A stretch of 64,000 nt of DNA from an uncultured Gammaproteobacteria bacterium (GTDB taxonomy: Bacteria > Patescibacteriota > Microgenomatia > UBA1406 > HO2-37-13b), in NCBI GenBank assembly GCA_964413645.1, contig CAYPSA010000001.1:8389-72388 (forward strand), written 5' to 3'. A program made the position numbers and the translations under genes. How positions within the stretch are numbered: the stretch's first letter is position 1; each line of letters begins with the position of its first letter. Under the pieces are notes generated by a model. It was not told where the DNA came from. It ran no database searches and was given only the letters and a program-made list of their open reading frames with translations. This document shows positions 11,067 through 14,111 of this stretch, piece by piece.

Positions 11067-12812
11067 CTATTCAACTAAAAATCCACTCACTTGGTGATCC
11101 CACATGCGTTTGAATTCACTATTGGGCTTTTTAAGAAGTTGCTCGACTGATCCATCTTCAATAATTTTTCCATGGCGTAAAATTACAATACGATCCATTT
11201 CTTTTAATGTAGAAAGACGATGTGCAATAGCAATGACGGTGCGGCCTTTCATAAGGGTTCTAAGTGACTTTTGAATAAGCTGTTCGCTTTCGCTGTCTAA
11301 ACTACTGGTGGCTTCATCAAGTACCAAAATAGGGGAATTCTTTAGAAACGCGCGTGCTATGGCAATGCGCTGTCGTTGCCCACCCGATAATTTAACGCCC
11401 CGTTCGCCGATAATAGTGTCGTAGCCTTTGGGAAGTTTTAAAATAAATTCGTGTGCCAGGGCTTGCTTTGCAGCTAAATGAACATCTTGTAGGGTTGCGT
11501 TGGGCATACTTGACACAATATTCTCATATATAGTGCGATGAAAAAGGCTGGTGTCTTGTGGAACAACCGCAATAGAACGACGCAAACTTTCTAAGGTAAG
11601 TGACGTAATTTCATGCCCGCCAATGATGATGTTTCCGGAATCGGTGTCGAAATGACGCAGAAGAAGTGAGACGAAGGTTGTTTTGCCTGCTCCGCTGTGA
11701 CCAATAAGTCCGACTTTTTGACCCGCAGGTATGTGAAGTGAGAAATTTTTGTAAATAGGAGAGCGTTCGTAACTAAATGAAACAGAAGAAAATGTGATTT
11801 CGCCATGTTCTATTTGGGCATTGTATGCGTCGGGTGCTGAAACAATATCGTGTTCTTGAAGTATATTTTGCAGGCCTTCAGTAATTTTCCCATACATTTT
11901 TCCAAACTCCTTAAGTTCTTGGCCTAGGAAAAAGAGACGGCTTGAAAGATCGCGAACGATGGCGATGATCATAATGACGACTCCGACTGAAATGACACCG
12001 AGCTGTAATAAATAGGTTGAGGTAATCATCATGATTGCCGTAAAAGCAAATACCGCGATTCCGTTTGCCGTTAGAAACCATTCTGAAAGTGTCCATTCGC
12101 GTAAGTCGGCTATGCGAGAACGTTTAATAAAAGAAGAAATGTGTTGATGTTCATTTGGAACGTACGCATTTTCGTGTACGAGAGAAATATTTGATAATGA
12201 ATCAATTACCACACCGCGTAAGCGCGAACTGGTGCGAGCGAGTTCGCGACTCCGTACGCGCATTTTAAGCGCAAAAAATATATTCATGGTAATATACAAA
12301 ACTGTCCAGACCAAAATTATGGCGCCCAAACGATAGTCACTCGTCCATGCAAACGTTATATAAATGATTATTCCGATTATCGTGGGCGAAAAATGCCACA
12401 AAAACTTGTCGGCTAAGTTGGCGCTTCCATCGGCGGCCTGGTAAATATAGTTTTCCAGAGAGCCGGCAAATCGATTATTAAAGTAATCTTTACTGTGGTT
12501 TGTAATGTATTCGTACAAATCGCGATATGCGGTAGTTTTAATATTCGCAATCCATCGCATACCTGAAAATCCACTGAGACGCCAAATATTTGCCTTGACT
12601 AAATTAAAGATGGAATAGAAAATAACCCAATACCACACATCGGACGCGTCGGCGGTAAATGCGATGAGCGCATCGGTGAGATTTTTAATAATGATAACCG
12701 TATAACTTTCGAGCAAAGTAGCAATAATAACAATTCCATTGCTCAAAATCGCCCATCGCTTGTGAAAGCGGGAAGCATACGCTACAAATGAAAAGGGATT
12801 TTTAGGAAGCAT
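11067..12812 (-). CDS. ABC transporter, fused permease/ATPase (MsbA-like exporter)
   Basis: Walker A GHSGAGKTT, signature LSGGQRQR, Walker B ILVLDEATS; start moved to ATG 12812, which has TGGTATACT 6 nt upstream (ORF track starts at 12866). Confidence 0.9.
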   Translation of the reverse strand: MLPKNPFSFVAYASRFHKRWAILSNGIVIIATLLESYTVIIIKNLTDALIAFTADASDVWYWVIFYSIFNLVKANIWRLSGFSGMRWIANIKTTAYRDLYEYITNHSKDYFNNRFAGSLENYIYQAADGSANLADKFLWHFSPTIIGIIIYITFAWTSDYRLGAIILVWTVLYITMNIFFALKMRVRSRELARTSSRLRGVVIDSLSNISLVHENAYVPNEHQHISSFIKRSRIADLREWTLSEWFLTANGIAVFAFTAIMMITSTYLLQLGVISVGVVIMIIAIVRDLSSRLFFLGQELKEFGKMYGKITEGLQNILQEHDIVSAPDAYNAQIEHGEITFSSVSFSYERSPIYKNFSLHIPAGQKVGLIGHSGAGKTTFVSLLLRHFDTDSGNIIIGGHEITSLTLESLRRSIAVVPQDTSLFHRTIYENIVSSMPNATLQDVHLAAKQALAHEFILKLPKGYDTIIGERGVKLSGGQRQRIAIARAFLKNSPILVLDEATSSLDSESEQLIQKSLRTLMKGRTVIAIAHRLSTLKEMDRIVILRHGKIIEDGSVEQLLKKPNSEFKRMWDHQVSGFLVE

Positions 12813-12818
12813 AATTTT

Positions 12819-12827
12819 AGTATACCA
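12819..12827 (-). promoter_or_regulatory. Extended -10 TGGTATACT, 6 nt before ATG at 12812
   Basis: Read on the minus strand. Confidence 0.5.
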
Positions 12828-12917
12828 GAGGAGTGGGGATAGCGGTTTATGCAAAGGACAGTGCAAATGGGTTAATTTTGCAATTATTCCATCCCCATAG
12901 ACGCTCAGCCACTTTTT

Positions 12918-12926
12918 TGGTACAAT
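12918..12926 (+). promoter_or_regulatory. Extended -10 TGGTACAAT, 14 nt upstream of the tRNA-like 5' end
   Basis: Read directly. Confidence 0.5.
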
Positions 12927-12940
12927 AGAGGGGTAAATTC

Positions 12941-13017
12941 GGGCCGGTAGCTCTCCGCCTGAAGGCGGAGGTAGAGCAGTCCCGATGCCGTTTTCGCATC
13001 GGGATTGGTCGTGGGTT
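12941..13017 (+). pseudogene. Truncated tRNA-like gene (acceptor 5' strand through first half of the T-arm), with a hairpin in the D-loop and a 10-bp anticodon stem
   Basis: GGGCCGGTA-GCTC[TCCGCCTGAAGGCGGAG]GTAGAGC-A-GTCCCGATGC-CGTTTTC-GCATCGGGAT-TGGTC-GTGGGTT, then the GIY-YIG ATG; a matching 3' acceptor strand CCGGCTC occurs at 13542-13548. Confidence 0.55.
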
Positions 13018-13275
13018 ATGAATCAATATTTTGTTTATATATTGAGAAGCGCCAAAGATGGTTCATTTTACATCGGATATTCACAGAATATCGAAGATCG
13101 GTTATGGGAACATAACATTGGAAGAACAGGGTATTCAAGTAAAAGAAGACCATGGGAATTGATATATAAAGAAGAATATGCTTCATCGACAGAAGCTTTA
13201 AAAAGAGAGAAGTATTTGAAGAGTTTAAAGAGTAAAAAGTACATTGAAAAGTTAGTTTTACTTTCGGGTCGGTAG
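13018..13275 (+). CDS. GIY-YIG nuclease superfamily protein (small URI-domain type)
   Basis: MNQYFVYILRS..GSFYIGYSQNIEDRLWEHN..REKYLK motifs; ATG immediately follows GTGGGTT of the tRNA-like T-arm; last 10 nt overlap tRNA-Lys. Confidence 0.85.
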   Translation: MNQYFVYILRSAKDGSFYIGYSQNIEDRLWEHNIGRTGYSSKRRPWELIYKEEYASSTEALKREKYLKSLKSKKYIEKLVLLSGR

Positions 13276-13340
13276 CTCAGTGGTAGAGCAGGAGCCTTTT
13301 AAGCTCTTGGTCGTGGGTTCGAACCCCACCCGACTCACCA
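13266..13340 (+). tRNA. tRNA-Lys (anticodon UUU), CCA encoded
   Basis: Hand-folded cloverleaf: acceptor GGGTCGG/CCGACTC, D GCTC/GAGC, anticodon loop CTTTTAA, T GTGGG-TTCGAAC-CCCAC, ACCA end. Confidence 0.9.
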
Positions 13341-13446
13341 AAATTTCCCTTTCTAAGAACAATTGGATTTGCTCAGTGGTAGAGCAGTCCCGATGCCGTT
13401 TTCGCATCGGGATTGGTCGTGGGTTCGAACCCCACCCGACTCACCA
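13341..13446 (+). repeat. 106-nt tRNA-like unit 1: 30-nt spacer plus tRNA-Lys body lacking the 5' acceptor strand, with a 10-bp anticodon stem (loop CGTTTTC)
   Basis: D-arm and the variable/T/acceptor 3' part are identical to tRNA-Lys; anticodon arm replaced by GTCCCGATGC-CGTTTTC-GCATCGGGAT. Confidence 0.75.
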
Positions 13447-13552
13447 AAATTTCCCTTTCTAAGAACAATTGGATTTGCTCAGTGGTAGAGCAGTCCCGAT
13501 GCCGTTTTCGCATCGGGATTGGTCGTGGGTTCGATCCCCTCCCGGCTCACTA
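13447..13552 (+). repeat. 106-nt tRNA-like unit 2; 3' end diverges (TTCGATCCCCTCCCGGCTCACTA) and complements the GGGCCGG acceptor at 12941
   Basis: Identical to unit 1 up to GTGGGTTCGA. Confidence 0.75.
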
Positions 13553-13562
13553 AAAATAGAAA

Positions 13563-13571
13563 TGGTATAAT
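13563..13571 (+). promoter_or_regulatory. Extended -10 TGGTATAAT, 6 nt before ATG at 13578
   Basis: Read directly. Confidence 0.55.
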
Positions 13572-13577
13572 AAGGCT

Positions 13578-14111
13578 ATGGCAGAGCTCTATATGCCGAC
13601 TCCACTTGAATTCATTCCAAAAAATCTTGCTTTGAGTAGTGTTCCTTTGCCTGAAAATCGCCTTGGAGGACTAGAAGGATACGAAAAAGTTATGGCGCAT
13701 GAATTAAATCATGTCTTGGCAGCTCGTGAACAAGGAAATACCATTGCTTCTGTTACTGCGCTACCAGGTGTTGGATATTTAGGTCTTACCGTTCTTGATG
13801 GGAATAAATCATTAGAGAGTTTTGCTGTTACCGCGGCGGCCGGTTCGGTAGACACCGTTTTTGGAGAAGCGTATGGATACGGAAGCGATATGAATAAAGT
13901 AACAGTTATTGCAGGATTTGACGAAGGTACTATTTATGACTATAGAAAACAAGCAAGAGATGCGATTGGACAGTATTCACCGGCATTACGAGCTCGGTTG
14001 GCGGAGCTTTTAACGTACATGGAAGTTGAAATGGGTATCGAAATAACCGGAGATGTTTTTGAAGAAGCACTCACCCGTGCACAACAGGAGCTGGCACATC
14101 AGAGCGGATAA
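13578..14111 (+). CDS. Stand-alone FtsH-peptidase-like (M41-like) zinc metalloprotease domain protein
   Basis: HELNH (HExxH), then the pattern V..LPG.GYLG.T and GYGSDMNKV, which parallel the FtsH protease domain; no AAA module. Confidence 0.45.
   Translation: MAELYMPTPLEFIPKNLALSSVPLPENRLGGLEGYEKVMAHELNHVLAAREQGNTIASVTALPGVGYLGLTVLDGNKSLESFAVTAAAGSVDTVFGEAYGYGSDMNKVTVIAGFDEGTIYDYRKQARDAIGQYSPALRARLAELLTYMEVEMGIEITGDVFEEALTRAQQELAHQSG

Follow-up and report, generated by a model that had tools for sequence, protein, structure and literature searches.

A probable selfish GIY-YIG nuclease cassette within a tRNA-Lys(UUU) gene of a Microgenomates-group bacterium

Organization of the locus

The window, by which we mean the whole 64-kb stretch of DNA analysed here, is part of a bacterial chromosome, with rpoB, rpoC, fusA, secY, metK, radA and a penicillin-binding protein gene present. 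The locus lies among ORFs matching HAD, ABC transporter and NUDIX families and one without a family match, and it comprises the following features.

12898–12926, plus strand: promoter-like site, TAGACG-17-TACAAT with an extended −10 (TG), TGGTACAAT; consensus scan
12941–13017, plus strand: left pseudo-tRNA arm, the 5' end of the resident tRNA-Lys gene, GGGCCGGTAGCT; aligned to the empty site of the relative L090
12953–12970, plus strand: D-loop hairpin, CTCCGCC-TGAA-GGCGGAG; RNA fold −14.5 kcal/mol, z −3.9
12979–13005, plus strand: first of three copies of the family hairpin, GTCCCGATGC-CGTTTTC-GCATCGGGAT; RNA fold −21 kcal/mol, z −6.7
13018–13275, plus strand: GIY-YIG nuclease gene, 85 aa; Pfam PF01541, E = 1.4e-16
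13266–13340, plus strand: functional tRNA-Lys(UUU) within the cassette; ARAGORN, Rfam 73.5 bits; CCA encoded
13341–13446, plus strand: tandem unit 1, a 30-nt spacer (13341–13370) and a right pseudo-tRNA arm (13371–13446); TRF, repeats
13447–13552, plus strand: tandem unit 2, spacer and right pseudo-tRNA arm with hairpin at 13493–13519; TRF, repeats

Re-reading of the window confirmed every sequence feature of the first-pass annotation at its coordinates, namely the promoter, the D-loop hairpin, the 10-bp stem with its CGTTTTC loop, the GTGGGTT/ATG junction, the 106-nt units and the end of the GIY-YIG ORF 10 nt inside the tRNA-Lys(UUU), where the TAG stop (13273–13275) occupies tRNA positions 8–10. 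The left arm begins with the GGGCCGG acceptor strand and the D-arm, has the hairpin where an anticodon arm would be, goes on with the variable loop and the 5' strand of the T-stem, and breaks off in the T-loop at GTGGGTT, immediately 5' of the ATG at 13018. The stem of the family hairpin has 10 bp in the window, its CCCGA/TCGGG base being lengthened by TGC/GCA. In the arm of unit 1 the D-arm, the hairpin (13387–13413) and the T-arm are followed by a cassette-type 3' acceptor strand with its CCA; a 5' acceptor strand is missing. The arm of unit 2 switches within the T-loop to resident tRNA-Lys sequence, the 3' end of that gene (approximately 13535–13550, TCCCCTCCCGGCTCAC), and its own 3' end, CCGGCTCA, is the complement of GGGCCGG. 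The promoter-like site, whose TTTTTTGGTACAAT is also found upstream of the uninterrupted tRNA-Lys gene of L090, probably belongs to the resident gene and would function as its promoter; the pseudo-tRNA arm, the nuclease ORF and the functional tRNA now lie downstream of it.

According to TRF, a tandem repeat with a period of 106 nt extends over 13307–13555 (2.3 copies, 97% matches), and a 48-nt block containing the hairpin is present in three copies that are 100% identical. L091, a short-read contig identical to the window, breaks within the repeat, so the assembled count of tandem units is uncertain. The insert of ~540 nt holds the GIY-YIG ORF and the tRNA and no other gene.

The tRNA-Lys(UUU) at 13266–13340 is the sole true tRNA that ARAGORN detects across the 64-kb window. 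The tandem units had been described as tRNA-Lys bodies, and while the layout of such bodies is there, no tRNA caller accepts them: ARAGORN makes no call, and the Rfam model RF00005 gives 28.4 bits for unit 1 and 23.7 bits for unit 2 against a threshold of 29. These matches cover model positions 10–63 only and contain a 17-nt insert where a 7-nt loop is expected. The left arm (12941–13017) yields neither an Rfam tRNA match nor an ARAGORN call. Permuted readings were also discarded, both as a YrlA or Y RNA-like molecule (RF02553; 22.0 and 18.2 bits vs. a gathering score of 69) and, for the repeat, as a permuted tmRNA (16 bits vs. a threshold of 47).

The nuclease

The 85-residue protein consists entirely of a GIY-YIG catalytic domain, which covers positions 1–77 of the 78 in the PF01541 profile. 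A second, weak Pfam match (T5orf172) overlaps the first, and no further domain was found. The residues Tyr-7, Tyr-18 (in Y18-I-G20), Gly-20, Arg-28, His-32 and Glu-64 are invariant or nearly so among 19 relatives, which places the protein in the GIY-YIG superfamily with an intact catalytic set. The AF2 model (pLDDT 91.6) has three strands and four helices. A profile comparison with the PDB gave E-values of 3e-15 for 1zg2, 3e-13 for 1ywl, 3e-7 for SLX1, 7e-3 for I-TevI and 0.14 for UvrC; Foldseek ranked the model in the same way, with 1zg2 and SLX1 at 3e-5 to 1e-3 (r.m.s.d. of 2.2 Å to 6seh) and UvrC and I-TevI at about 0.4–1. The best matches in sequence and fold are thus UPF0213 proteins (YhbQ, BH0048/1zg2, EF2693/1ywl) and SLX1, with which the protein shares a minimal GIY-YIG core. 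Judged by profile and predicted fold, the nuclease is a member of the SLX1/UPF0213 (YhbQ) branch and not of that of I-TevI and SegB, the type of nuclease to which the first-pass annotation had likened it.

Neither Pfam nor the AF2 model reveals a sequence-specific DNA-binding module (I-TevI zinc finger, helix-turn-helix or NUMOD type) in the 85 residues, and site-specific homing is therefore hard to picture. Between positions 5 and 58 the tRNA within the cassette does not differ from the resident gene, so that a nuclease recognizing the body of the tRNA gene would cut its own locus as well.

Empty and occupied sites

What was the gene that the insert split? The relative L090 carries, at the same site, one uninterrupted normal tRNA-Lys(UUU) gene with a 5-bp anticodon stem. 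Its neighbours match those of the window: to one side an ABC transporter gene, on the minus strand, and to the other a homologue (80% protein identity) of the ORF at 13578–14111. The 5' end of this tRNA, with TTTTTTGGTACAAT, aligns to the left outer end of the window locus, while its 3' end, TTCGATCCCCTCCCGGCTCAC, and the downstream AATGGTATAAT align to the right outer end. A second relative, L098, likewise has an uninterrupted normal tRNA-Lys(UUU) gene, of the type found inside the window cassette. It had been proposed that a long-stem tRNA-like gene was split by about 520 nt. A tRNA gene was indeed split by inserted and duplicated material with the GIY-YIG gene at its centre, but the uninterrupted versions for which a comparison across genomes had been suggested turn out to be normal tRNA-Lys(UUU) genes. 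Because the long stem and the D-loop hairpin are both absent from the empty site of L090, they arrived with the insert or arose later. A contig scan for a tRNA-Lys body with a 27-nt anticodon arm, as a conserved long-stem gene would have, returned a single match, an unrelated tRNA of a Paludibacteraceae MAG; the long stem by itself is no conserved gene. No complete hairpin-bearing tRNA gene was found.

The tRNA inside the cassette, GGGTCGG...GAACCCCACCCGACTCACCA, has the same sequence as the tRNA-Lys of L002 and L003 and the resident tRNA-Lys of L098; pair 4-69, the T-loop and the T-stem set it apart from the resident gene of the window lineage. Conversely, the left arm of L002 is of the GGGCCGG type of the window lineage. 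Such swapped tRNA types in the window and L002 would be the reciprocal co-conversion expected if the cassette moves between both lineages.

The site is occupied in the window, L002, L003 and L092–L095 and empty in L090 and L098, and thus displays the presence/absence polymorphism at one site by which a homing endonuclease gene is recognized; an empty site could represent loss instead of the ancestral state. The flanking genes of the window and L002 share 72–82% nucleotide identity, while by direct reading their nuclease ORFs differ at ~3 of 258 nt (proteins 99% identical), and this near-identity across diverged genomes suggests a recent spread of the cassette. Decayed, frameshifted copies occur as well: the ORF of L092 has a 28-nt deletion and that of L095 a 25-nt duplication. 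Empty and occupied sites, ORF near-identity, frameshifted copies and the serial invasions described below are signs of a selfish mobile element.

We therefore consider it probable (about 0.8) that a small selfish cassette invaded a Microgenomates-group (CPR) bacterium at a normal resident tRNA-Lys(UUU) gene. This cassette would consist of the 85-residue nuclease, a complete replacement tRNA-Lys(UUU) that keeps the host viable, and tRNA-derived arms with a hairpin in place of the anticodon arm. Entry would have been homing-like, by recombinational repair with the tRNA-like arms as homology, after a break most likely made by the nuclease, and pieces of the previous host's tRNA would have been dragged along. 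Recombination or gene conversion among tRNA copies, as already supposed in the first-pass annotation, explains the repeats, and the 106-nt units are probably products of unequal recombination between repeated arms. Transcription from the tRNA promoter would make the nuclease gene a 5' leader of the tRNA precursor; with the stop codon located within the tRNA, RNase P processing would remove this codon and so limit expression.

Related cassettes at other tRNA genes

The family of the nuclease amounts to 10,728 clusters at 50% identity (E ≤ 1e-10). The relatives are metagenomic contigs; a Microgenomates (CPR) genome and a Prolixibacteraceae (Bacteroidota) genome have members, and the remaining contigs are untyped. 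In a locus scan built on a 6-sequence alignment, 62 of 91 related nuclease gene copies have a tRNA gene on the same strand within 200 nt, with identities that include Lys, Asp, Pro, Arg, Gln, Met, Ile and Ser. At most of these loci a partial duplicate of the neighbouring tRNA lies beside or across the nuclease gene, and the pseudo-tRNA parts around the hairpin are mostly 100% identical to the adjoining tRNA. The ORF often ends on the U8-A9-G10 (TAG) of the tRNA: 15 copies have an overlap of exactly 10 nt between the ORF end and the tRNA, and 7 have one of 21–23 nt. Many of the called proteins have an N-terminal extension that is translated tRNA T-arm. Several loci contain two or three nuclease genes, some from different lineages. 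A YhbQ-type housekeeping gene at unrelated loci had been named as the case that would speak against the proposal; the nuclease is no such gene, and its close relatives are tied to tRNA genes. A phage or plasmid origin was ruled out, as the window is bacterial chromosome and nuclease relatives are nearly absent from plasmid records and reach only 2 weak matches in 50,697 phage records.

Taken together, this shows that a large SLX1/UPF0213 subfamily behaves as a selfish element colonizing tRNA genes of many identities. The prokaryotic members of this branch have until now been regarded as vertically inherited, non-selfish housekeeping genes (PMC1564403), a view which calls for reassessment. A full-text literature search, with most subscription journals outside its coverage, returned no account of tRNA gene duplications with small GIY-YIG genes nested in them.

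The hairpin and its possible roles

The CCCGA-loop-TCGGG motif occurs 69 times in 204 kb of loci, where 2.2 occurrences are expected (~30-fold enrichment). The window contains three copies vs. 0.7 expected, all within the cassette locus. The hairpin recurs in pseudo-copies of Asp, Pro, Ile, Gln, Met and Leu tRNAs beside related nucleases, and most relatives have one copy where the window has tandem units. The stem covaries at the sixth and outer pairs and is extended with complementary bases, while the loops of the relatives (2–7 nt; e.g. TTT, TTAA, TGA, TTA) are conserved in neither length nor sequence. Half-sites are spaced by 4, 5, 6, 7, 13 or 18 nt. A B-form DNA site for a protein dimer was ruled out, since this spacing varies while complementarity is kept. 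The second, D-loop hairpin is found among L092–L095, L002 and L003 only in L093, as CTCCGCCAGAAGGCGGT, and its inner stem TCCGCC..GGCGGA also in L039.

In the preferred reading, the hairpins would be cis-acting parts of the cassette. A nuclease of the structure-specific type may recognize them as stem-loops, and they may also be locks that leave the flanking copies uncleavable, or unable to restore a working tRNA upon deletion of the cassette. SLX1 cuts branched and stem-loop DNA by structure, and by analogy such cutting would fit recognition of the hairpin. The idea that the hairpins purely hinder recombination, by shortening homology, suits the window, whose longest unbroken stretch of identity is 14 nt, and is only partly consistent with the data overall; other loci keep 38–65 nt of perfect identity between pseudo-copy and tRNA, and a pure anti-deletion role is therefore not general. 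Inversion between two hairpins, considered for L007/L010, was also ruled out, as the entire pseudo-tRNA unit is inverted, beyond the segment between the hairpins.

The hairpin-bearing pseudo-tRNA could instead be a functional RNA partner of the nuclease, acting as a translational operator, a type III-like RNA antitoxin or an adaptor or guide that matches the target, with the tandem units as dosage repeats next to the nuclease gene. Where the hairpin is upstream, it mostly lies 13–40 nt before the ATG, as suits such a partner; so do the covarying, extended stem, the variable spacing, which favours a folded single strand, and the identity of the flanks to the neighbouring tRNA. However, some hairpins follow the ORF or are on the other strand, the strict motif is found within 200 nt of only 45 of 91 nuclease gene copies, 85 residues are very few for guided cleavage, and a perfect palindrome fits a role at the DNA level equally well. 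On balance we regard an RNA partner as unlikely.

How, then, does an 85-residue nuclease without a DNA-binding domain come to lie so consistently in tRNA genes? A speculative answer, to which we assign little probability, is that the SLX1-type nuclease finds them via nucleic-acid shape (an extruded cloverleaf or stem-loop, the CCCGA hairpin) or via the transcribed hairpin and pseudo-tRNA as an adaptor or guide. In the latter version a fragment would be copied from the target at each insertion, and the cassette would thereby reprogram itself for each tRNA gene it enters. If true, either would amount to a new and minimal principle of targeting in a family of mobile nucleases with more than 10,000 clusters.

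It was also proposed that the long-stem units are expressed tRNA-Lys variants or decoys, e.g. against PrrC-type anticodon nucleases, and that a functional long-stem gene was split and duplicated. The hairpin is highly stable, the units keep a T-arm and a 3' acceptor strand (with CCA encoded in unit 1) and lie downstream of a tRNA promoter, and the loops of the Lys lineage are T-rich and frequently contain TTT. But UUU at the anticodon position, though present in the window loop, is not conserved among relatives; an anticodon kept in the loop (TTT in several Lys copies, CGG in one Pro copy) fails elsewhere. The units have neither an anticodon loop nor a 5' acceptor strand and fall below the tRNA threshold, the uninterrupted gene at the site is a normal tRNA-Lys, and a complete hairpin-bearing gene did not turn up. 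Because the same hairpin is found in pseudo-copies of Asp, Pro, Ile, Gln, Met and Leu tRNAs, nothing about it is specific to Lys or PrrC, and decoys are very improbable. Equally improbable is passive debris, in which slippage or an integrase-type island left tRNA duplicates that decayed, and the GIY-YIG gene, whether passenger or YhbQ-like housekeeping gene, had no part in the rearrangement: integrative elements do leave partial tRNA copies (PMC9897764), the UPF0213/YhbQ branch is held to be non-selfish (PMC1564403) and an element with a serine recombinase gene adjoins the same tRNA-Lys in L098, but the ~540-nt insert contains no tyrosine or serine recombinase gene of the kind that marks a recombinase-driven island, the association of nuclease, tRNA and pseudo-tRNA recurs over dozens of unrelated contigs and many tRNA types, and the stop on tRNA positions 8–10, the near-identity across diverged genomes and the serial insertions of different nuclease lineages are further signs of an active element.

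Comparison with known mobile elements

A documented parallel to the invading cassette is provided by the mORFs (mobile ORF elements) of fungal mitochondria, in which a LAGLIDADG or GIY-YIG ORF is accompanied by a foreign copy of the end of the target gene and the native end is left as a duplicate; targets are atp6 in Allomyces and atp6, atp9, cox2 and nad3 in Glomus (PMC3630166). Both are free-standing endonuclease genes in an essential gene that bring a replacement part, leave the native part nearby and spread horizontally. Unlike mORFs, the cassette sits in a bacterial chromosomal tRNA gene, encodes an SLX1/UPF0213 domain without a DNA-binding module, has a conserved hairpin in the displaced copies and ends its ORF on the UAG of the tRNA.

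The Seg proteins are free-standing GIY-YIG homing endonucleases of T4-like phages, with SegB in a tRNA gene cluster; they belong to the I-TevI/UvrC lineage and have C-terminal DNA-binding domains. As with SegB, the GIY-YIG gene has tRNA genes for neighbours and presumably spreads through repair of a break, with the flanks being co-converted. The window protein, however, matches I-TevI by fold only at E ~0.5–1 and has relatives that are almost absent from phage records, and we know of no pseudo-tRNA arms or hairpins described for Seg genes. SLX1, for its part, has a RING domain and a partner, SLX4. The window subfamily departs from UPF0213 proteins as generally regarded in behaving as a mobile element tied to tRNA genes.

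IS200/IS605 (TnpA) and REP/RAYT elements also place short conserved stem-loops, probably read as folded single strands, by a small nuclease gene. Their HUH transposases form covalent intermediates, whereas a GIY-YIG nuclease only hydrolyses, and the cassettes show no such target-site rule or end structure. In type III toxin–antitoxin systems (ToxIN-like), the toxin processes tandem RNA repeats by which it is inhibited. The window has tandem units, but most relatives have only one hairpin copy. Islands and prophages that integrate by tyrosine or serine recombinases share with the cassette the choice of a tRNA gene as target (PMC9897764). The cassette differs in having no recombinase, in its size (~0.3–0.55 kb vs. 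10–100 kb) and in its partial copy, which can be a 5' or 3' fragment and is altered by hairpins.

Cassettes of this kind have practical consequences. They create pseudo-tRNAs and tandem repeats at which assemblies break and tRNA annotation is misled, and they give rise to protein calls with N- or C-termini translated from tRNA sequence. They also move tRNA alleles between species. In small CPR genomes the sole tRNA-Lys(UUU) gene may sit in such a cassette, as is the case within the 64-kb window.

Architecture of the tRNA-Lys locus

The locus consists of tRNA-like pieces arranged around a small GIY-YIG nuclease gene:

12898-12926: promoter-like site with an extended -10 element (TGGTACAAT), from a consensus scan
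12941-13017: 5' tRNA-like fragment, acceptor strand GGGCCGG
13018-13275: GIY-YIG open reading frame (ORF) of 85 aa (Pfam GIY-YIG, E=1.4e-16)
13266-13340: tRNA-Lys(UUU), the sole tRNA of the 64-kb window (ARAGORN, Rfam)
13307-13555: tandem repeat, 106-nt period, 2.3 copies (Tandem Repeats Finder)

Reading of 12700-13800 confirmed every sequence feature listed in the first-pass annotation. The D-loop of the 5' fragment holds a perfect hairpin (CTCCGCC-TGAA-GGCGGAG), its anticodon arm is a 10-bp stem (GTCCCGATGC/GCATCGGGAT) with the loop CGTTTTC, and the fragment ends in GTGGGTT, directly next to the ATG at 13018. Both hairpins are far more stably folded than shuffled sequence (z of -6.7 and -3.9). 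The TAG stop of the ORF lies 10 nt into the complete inner tRNA, which is followed by unit 1 (13341-13446) and unit 2 (13447-13552) of the tandem repeat. A 48-nt block containing the hairpin is present in the window in three copies that are 100% identical. Neither unit was recognised as a tRNA by any caller (28.4 and 23.7 bits, threshold 29), and their match to the tRNA model covers only positions 10-63.

A mechanical ORF list offered an alternative nuclease start at an ATG inside the hairpin (12985-13017; 96 aa). This start is an artefact; homologues align from the ATG at 13018. The short-read contig L091, 100% identical to the window, begins inside the tandem repeat, its positions 1-51 corresponding to window 13505-13555. 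Assemblies break in this repeat, and the number of 106-nt units is therefore uncertain.

The uninterrupted site

For comparison, contigs were fetched via homologues of the downstream neighbour ORF (13578-14111). One of them, L090, shares the synteny of the window, with a minus-strand ABC transporter gene, an intergenic region and the homologue of the neighbour ORF (80% identical protein). Its intergenic region contains a single, uninterrupted, ordinary tRNA-Lys(UUU) (GGGCCGGTAGCTCAGTGGTAGAGCAGGAGCCTTTTAAGCTCTTGGTCGTGGGTTCGATCCCCTCCCGGCTCAC). In the alignment, the left border of the window locus matches the promoter region of L090 and the opening 12 nt of this tRNA, and the right border its last ~16 nt and the L090 downstream flank (AATGGTATAAT...ATG). 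Because both borders match the ends of the L090 tRNA-Lys, a normal tRNA-Lys gene has received an insert of about 540 nt between its D-arm and its T-loop. The D-loop hairpin and the long anticodon-arm hairpin are both absent from the empty site, and therefore the “long-stem tRNA-like gene” that the first-pass annotation took to be the split gene does not exist in uninterrupted form; the uninterrupted gene is a normal tRNA-Lys(UUU). The further idea that the units are tRNA-Lys decoys was not supported. A second empty site was found in L098, where an uninterrupted tRNA-Lys is accompanied by an upstream flank of the type seen in L002, a related cassette-bearing contig.

An encoded CCA (ACTCACCA) ends both the inner, cassette-type tRNA and the tRNA-like body of unit 1 (13371-13446); the resident-type 3' end without encoded CCA is found in that of unit 2 (13477-13552) and in L090. 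Downstream, TGGTATAAT (13564-13580) is placed ~5 nt before the ATG (13578) of a 177-aa ORF, an arrangement that is kept in L090 and suggests a leaderless or near-leaderless mRNA.

Exchange between lineages and decay

The inner tRNA departs from the resident type in its 4-69 pair, T-loop and T-stem, and has exactly the sequence of the tRNA-Lys adjoining a 99%-identical nuclease gene in L002 and L003 and of the uninterrupted tRNA-Lys of L098. The left pseudo-arm of L002 has the GGGCCGG acceptor of the window lineage, and therefore each copy contains part of the tRNA of the other lineage. Such reciprocal pieces are the expected outcome of break repair with co-conversion of flanks. Nucleotide identity between the window and L002 is 72-82% in the flanking genes, whereas the nuclease ORFs differ at only ~3 of 258 positions. 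Within the L002 population the ORF carries a 28-nt deletion in one contig and a 25-nt duplication in another, and the D-loop hairpin is present in L093 only. As read from these sequences, the identity contrast, the ORF lesions and the hairpin polymorphism are the traces of an invading, spreading and decaying element. The part of the earlier interpretation that invoked insertion and gene conversion around the GIY-YIG gene is supported. What the alignments show is a cassette (nuclease gene, tRNA and hairpin-marked tRNA arms) lying where relatives have an intact tRNA-Lys gene; on the same evidence, this cassette has moved between lineages and decays.

Genes of the window include rpoB, rpoC, fusA, secY, metK, radA and one for a penicillin-binding protein, and its EF-G and SecY cluster at 90% identity with proteins of a ‘Microgenomates group bacterium’ MAG. 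The window is CPR bacterial chromosome and not phage. Relatives of the nuclease were almost absent from the phage and plasmid records searched.

A class of tRNA-associated mini-nucleases

A metagenome scan with alignment of close relatives yielded at least 80 loci, with 505 of 600 candidates confirmed, and a profile search of 1.84 billion cluster representatives returned 10,728 clusters at E<=1e-10. One family member comes from a Prolixibacteraceae (Bacteroidota) genome; the family is therefore not confined to CPR. In the scanned loci, a same-strand tRNA lies no more than 200 nt from 62 of the 91 nuclease gene copies, with identities including Asp(GTC), Lys(UUU), Pro, Arg, Gln, Met, Ile, Ala, Ser, Tyr, Gly and Leu. 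Most tRNA-associated loci also contain a partial copy of the neighbouring tRNA: where the full tRNA lies downstream, a 5' fragment typically precedes the nuclease gene, and where it lies upstream, a 3' fragment typically follows. In 15 copies the end of the ORF reaches exactly 10 nt into the tRNA, the conserved U8-A9-G10 being read as TAG; in 7 more the overlap is 21-23 nt, with a D-arm TAG as the stop in the copies inspected. Translated T-arms form N-terminal extensions of many called proteins (e.g. GREFESRHSRH, GSSPV, RFESLHPS), and translated tRNA 5' ends apparently form the C-termini of some. Several loci have two or three nuclease genes in series, some of clearly different lineages, which indicates repeated invasion. 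The window case exposes a large class of tRNA-gene-invading mini-nuclease cassettes with a conserved hairpin, of interest beyond the window and not found described in the literature searched.

Whole cassettes of a nuclease gene and a hairpin-bearing pseudo-tRNA-Asp also occur in tandem with a period of ~360-394 nt (three copies in locus L031, two each in L025 and L035). Compared with L046, L041/L042 (1740-1840) have an extra ORF-less pseudo-tRNA, hairpin and 5' leader between nuclease gene and tRNA-Asp, which could be an ORF-less cassette derivative or a product of unequal crossover. In L073 (29-201), split 22-nt pieces of tRNA-Arg(ACG), positions 1-22 and 23-44, lie ~28 nt apart in two tandem copies upstream of the full tRNA and nuclease gene.

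The conserved hairpin

In the window, the stem found in place of the anticodon arm is an extended version of a motif common to the relatives, [T/C]CCCGA[N]-loop-[N']TCGGG[A/G]. The loci, 204 kb in all, contain 69 copies of this motif where dinucleotide shuffles predict 2.2, and all three of its occurrences in the window lie in this locus. It may replace the whole anticodon arm of the pseudo-tRNA, the 3' half of that arm or the variable region, and is also found in the D-arm, D-loop or T-loop; upstream hairpins usually end 13-40 nt before the nuclease ATG. Both the sixth pair (G-C 25, T-A 15, C-G 8) and the outer pair (T-A 42, C-G 10, G-C 4) covary. A duplex site for a protein dimer is argued against by the half-site spacing, which varies between 4, 5, 6, 7, 13 and 18 nt. 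Because complementarity is kept in the longer versions, this variation favours a single strand that folds (RNA, ssDNA or cruciform).

The D-loops of pseudo-copies contain further recurrent hairpins that are perfect and GC-rich: TCCGCC..GGCGGA in the window, L093 and L039, CCTGCCTGC..GCAGGCAGG in L014 and L024 (different tRNA types), and CCCGC..GCGGG in L004 and L018. Pseudo-copies collect still more perfect hairpins, as in L012 (1850-1930), with a 26-nt T-loop insert, and in L039 (1276-1345), with two adjacent nested hairpins.

The nuclease and a possible mechanism

A profile built from 19 relatives scored far better against two UPF0213 proteins (BH0048, EF2693) and the nuclease domain of SLX1 than against I-TevI or UvrC, and the fold ranking of a confident AF2 model (pLDDT 91.6) agrees. 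The protein has no second domain, and its GIY, YIG, Arg and Glu positions are all conserved. Prokaryotic Slx1-like proteins have been described as minimal and vertically inherited, with selfish GIY-YIG enzymes derived from another, UvrC-like lineage (Dunin-Horkawicz et al., PMC1564403), a picture that the tRNA-invading subfamily does not fit. The entire SLX1/UPF0213 branch may have a tRNA link. In two plasmid-collection matches (H4, H5; Radiobacillus, Bacillus subtilis), yazA, a housekeeping UPF0213 gene, directly adjoins or overlaps trmNF (tRNA m6A37 methyltransferase), and the 2006 GIY-YIG survey reported a prokaryotic Slx1-like domain fused to a TrmH-like tRNA Gm18 methyltransferase (PMC1564403).

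We propose that the cassette enters by recombinational repair with its tRNA-like arms as homology, most likely triggered by a nuclease-made break, as in homing. Because tRNA genes are conserved, those of new hosts would offer ready homology, and the spare tRNA would render the insertion harmless. The 106-nt units would stem from unequal recombination between repeated arms; comparable right-hand units are single copies in L011, L012 and L016. The ORF would be read off the tRNA promoter as leader of the tRNA precursor, and RNase P cleavage at the tRNA 5' end would take off the stop codon, thus capping ORF expression. A nuclease recognising the tRNA gene body would also cut the functional tRNA beside its own gene; structure-specific recognition is suggested instead by the SLX1-type fold and by the hairpin with its variable spacing. 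The hairpins would also make most ORF-deleting crossovers leave a dead tRNA, stabilising the cassette, but this can be only part of the explanation, since long perfect repeats persist at other loci.

Comparison with known systems

Phage Seg endonucleases share the tRNA-cluster setting but belong to another GIY-YIG lineage and, unlike the cassette nuclease, have DNA-binding domains. A full-text literature search, whose coverage left out most subscription-journal papers, found no published account of such an arrangement. The closest documented analogue is provided by mobile ORF elements of fungal mitochondria, in which an endonuclease ORF brings along a foreign version of the end of its target gene, the native end staying behind as a duplicate (PMC3630166). 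Partial tRNA copies are also left by recombinase-driven islands (PMC9897764), but a recombinase is absent at the window locus. In L098 (11528-16525), genes for a 605-aa serine recombinase, an HTH protein and a TraG/VirD4-like protein lie immediately downstream of the uninterrupted tRNA-Lys(UUU), which the recombinase gene call overlaps. This tRNA gene region is therefore in use by a second mobile element, one unrelated to the cassette.
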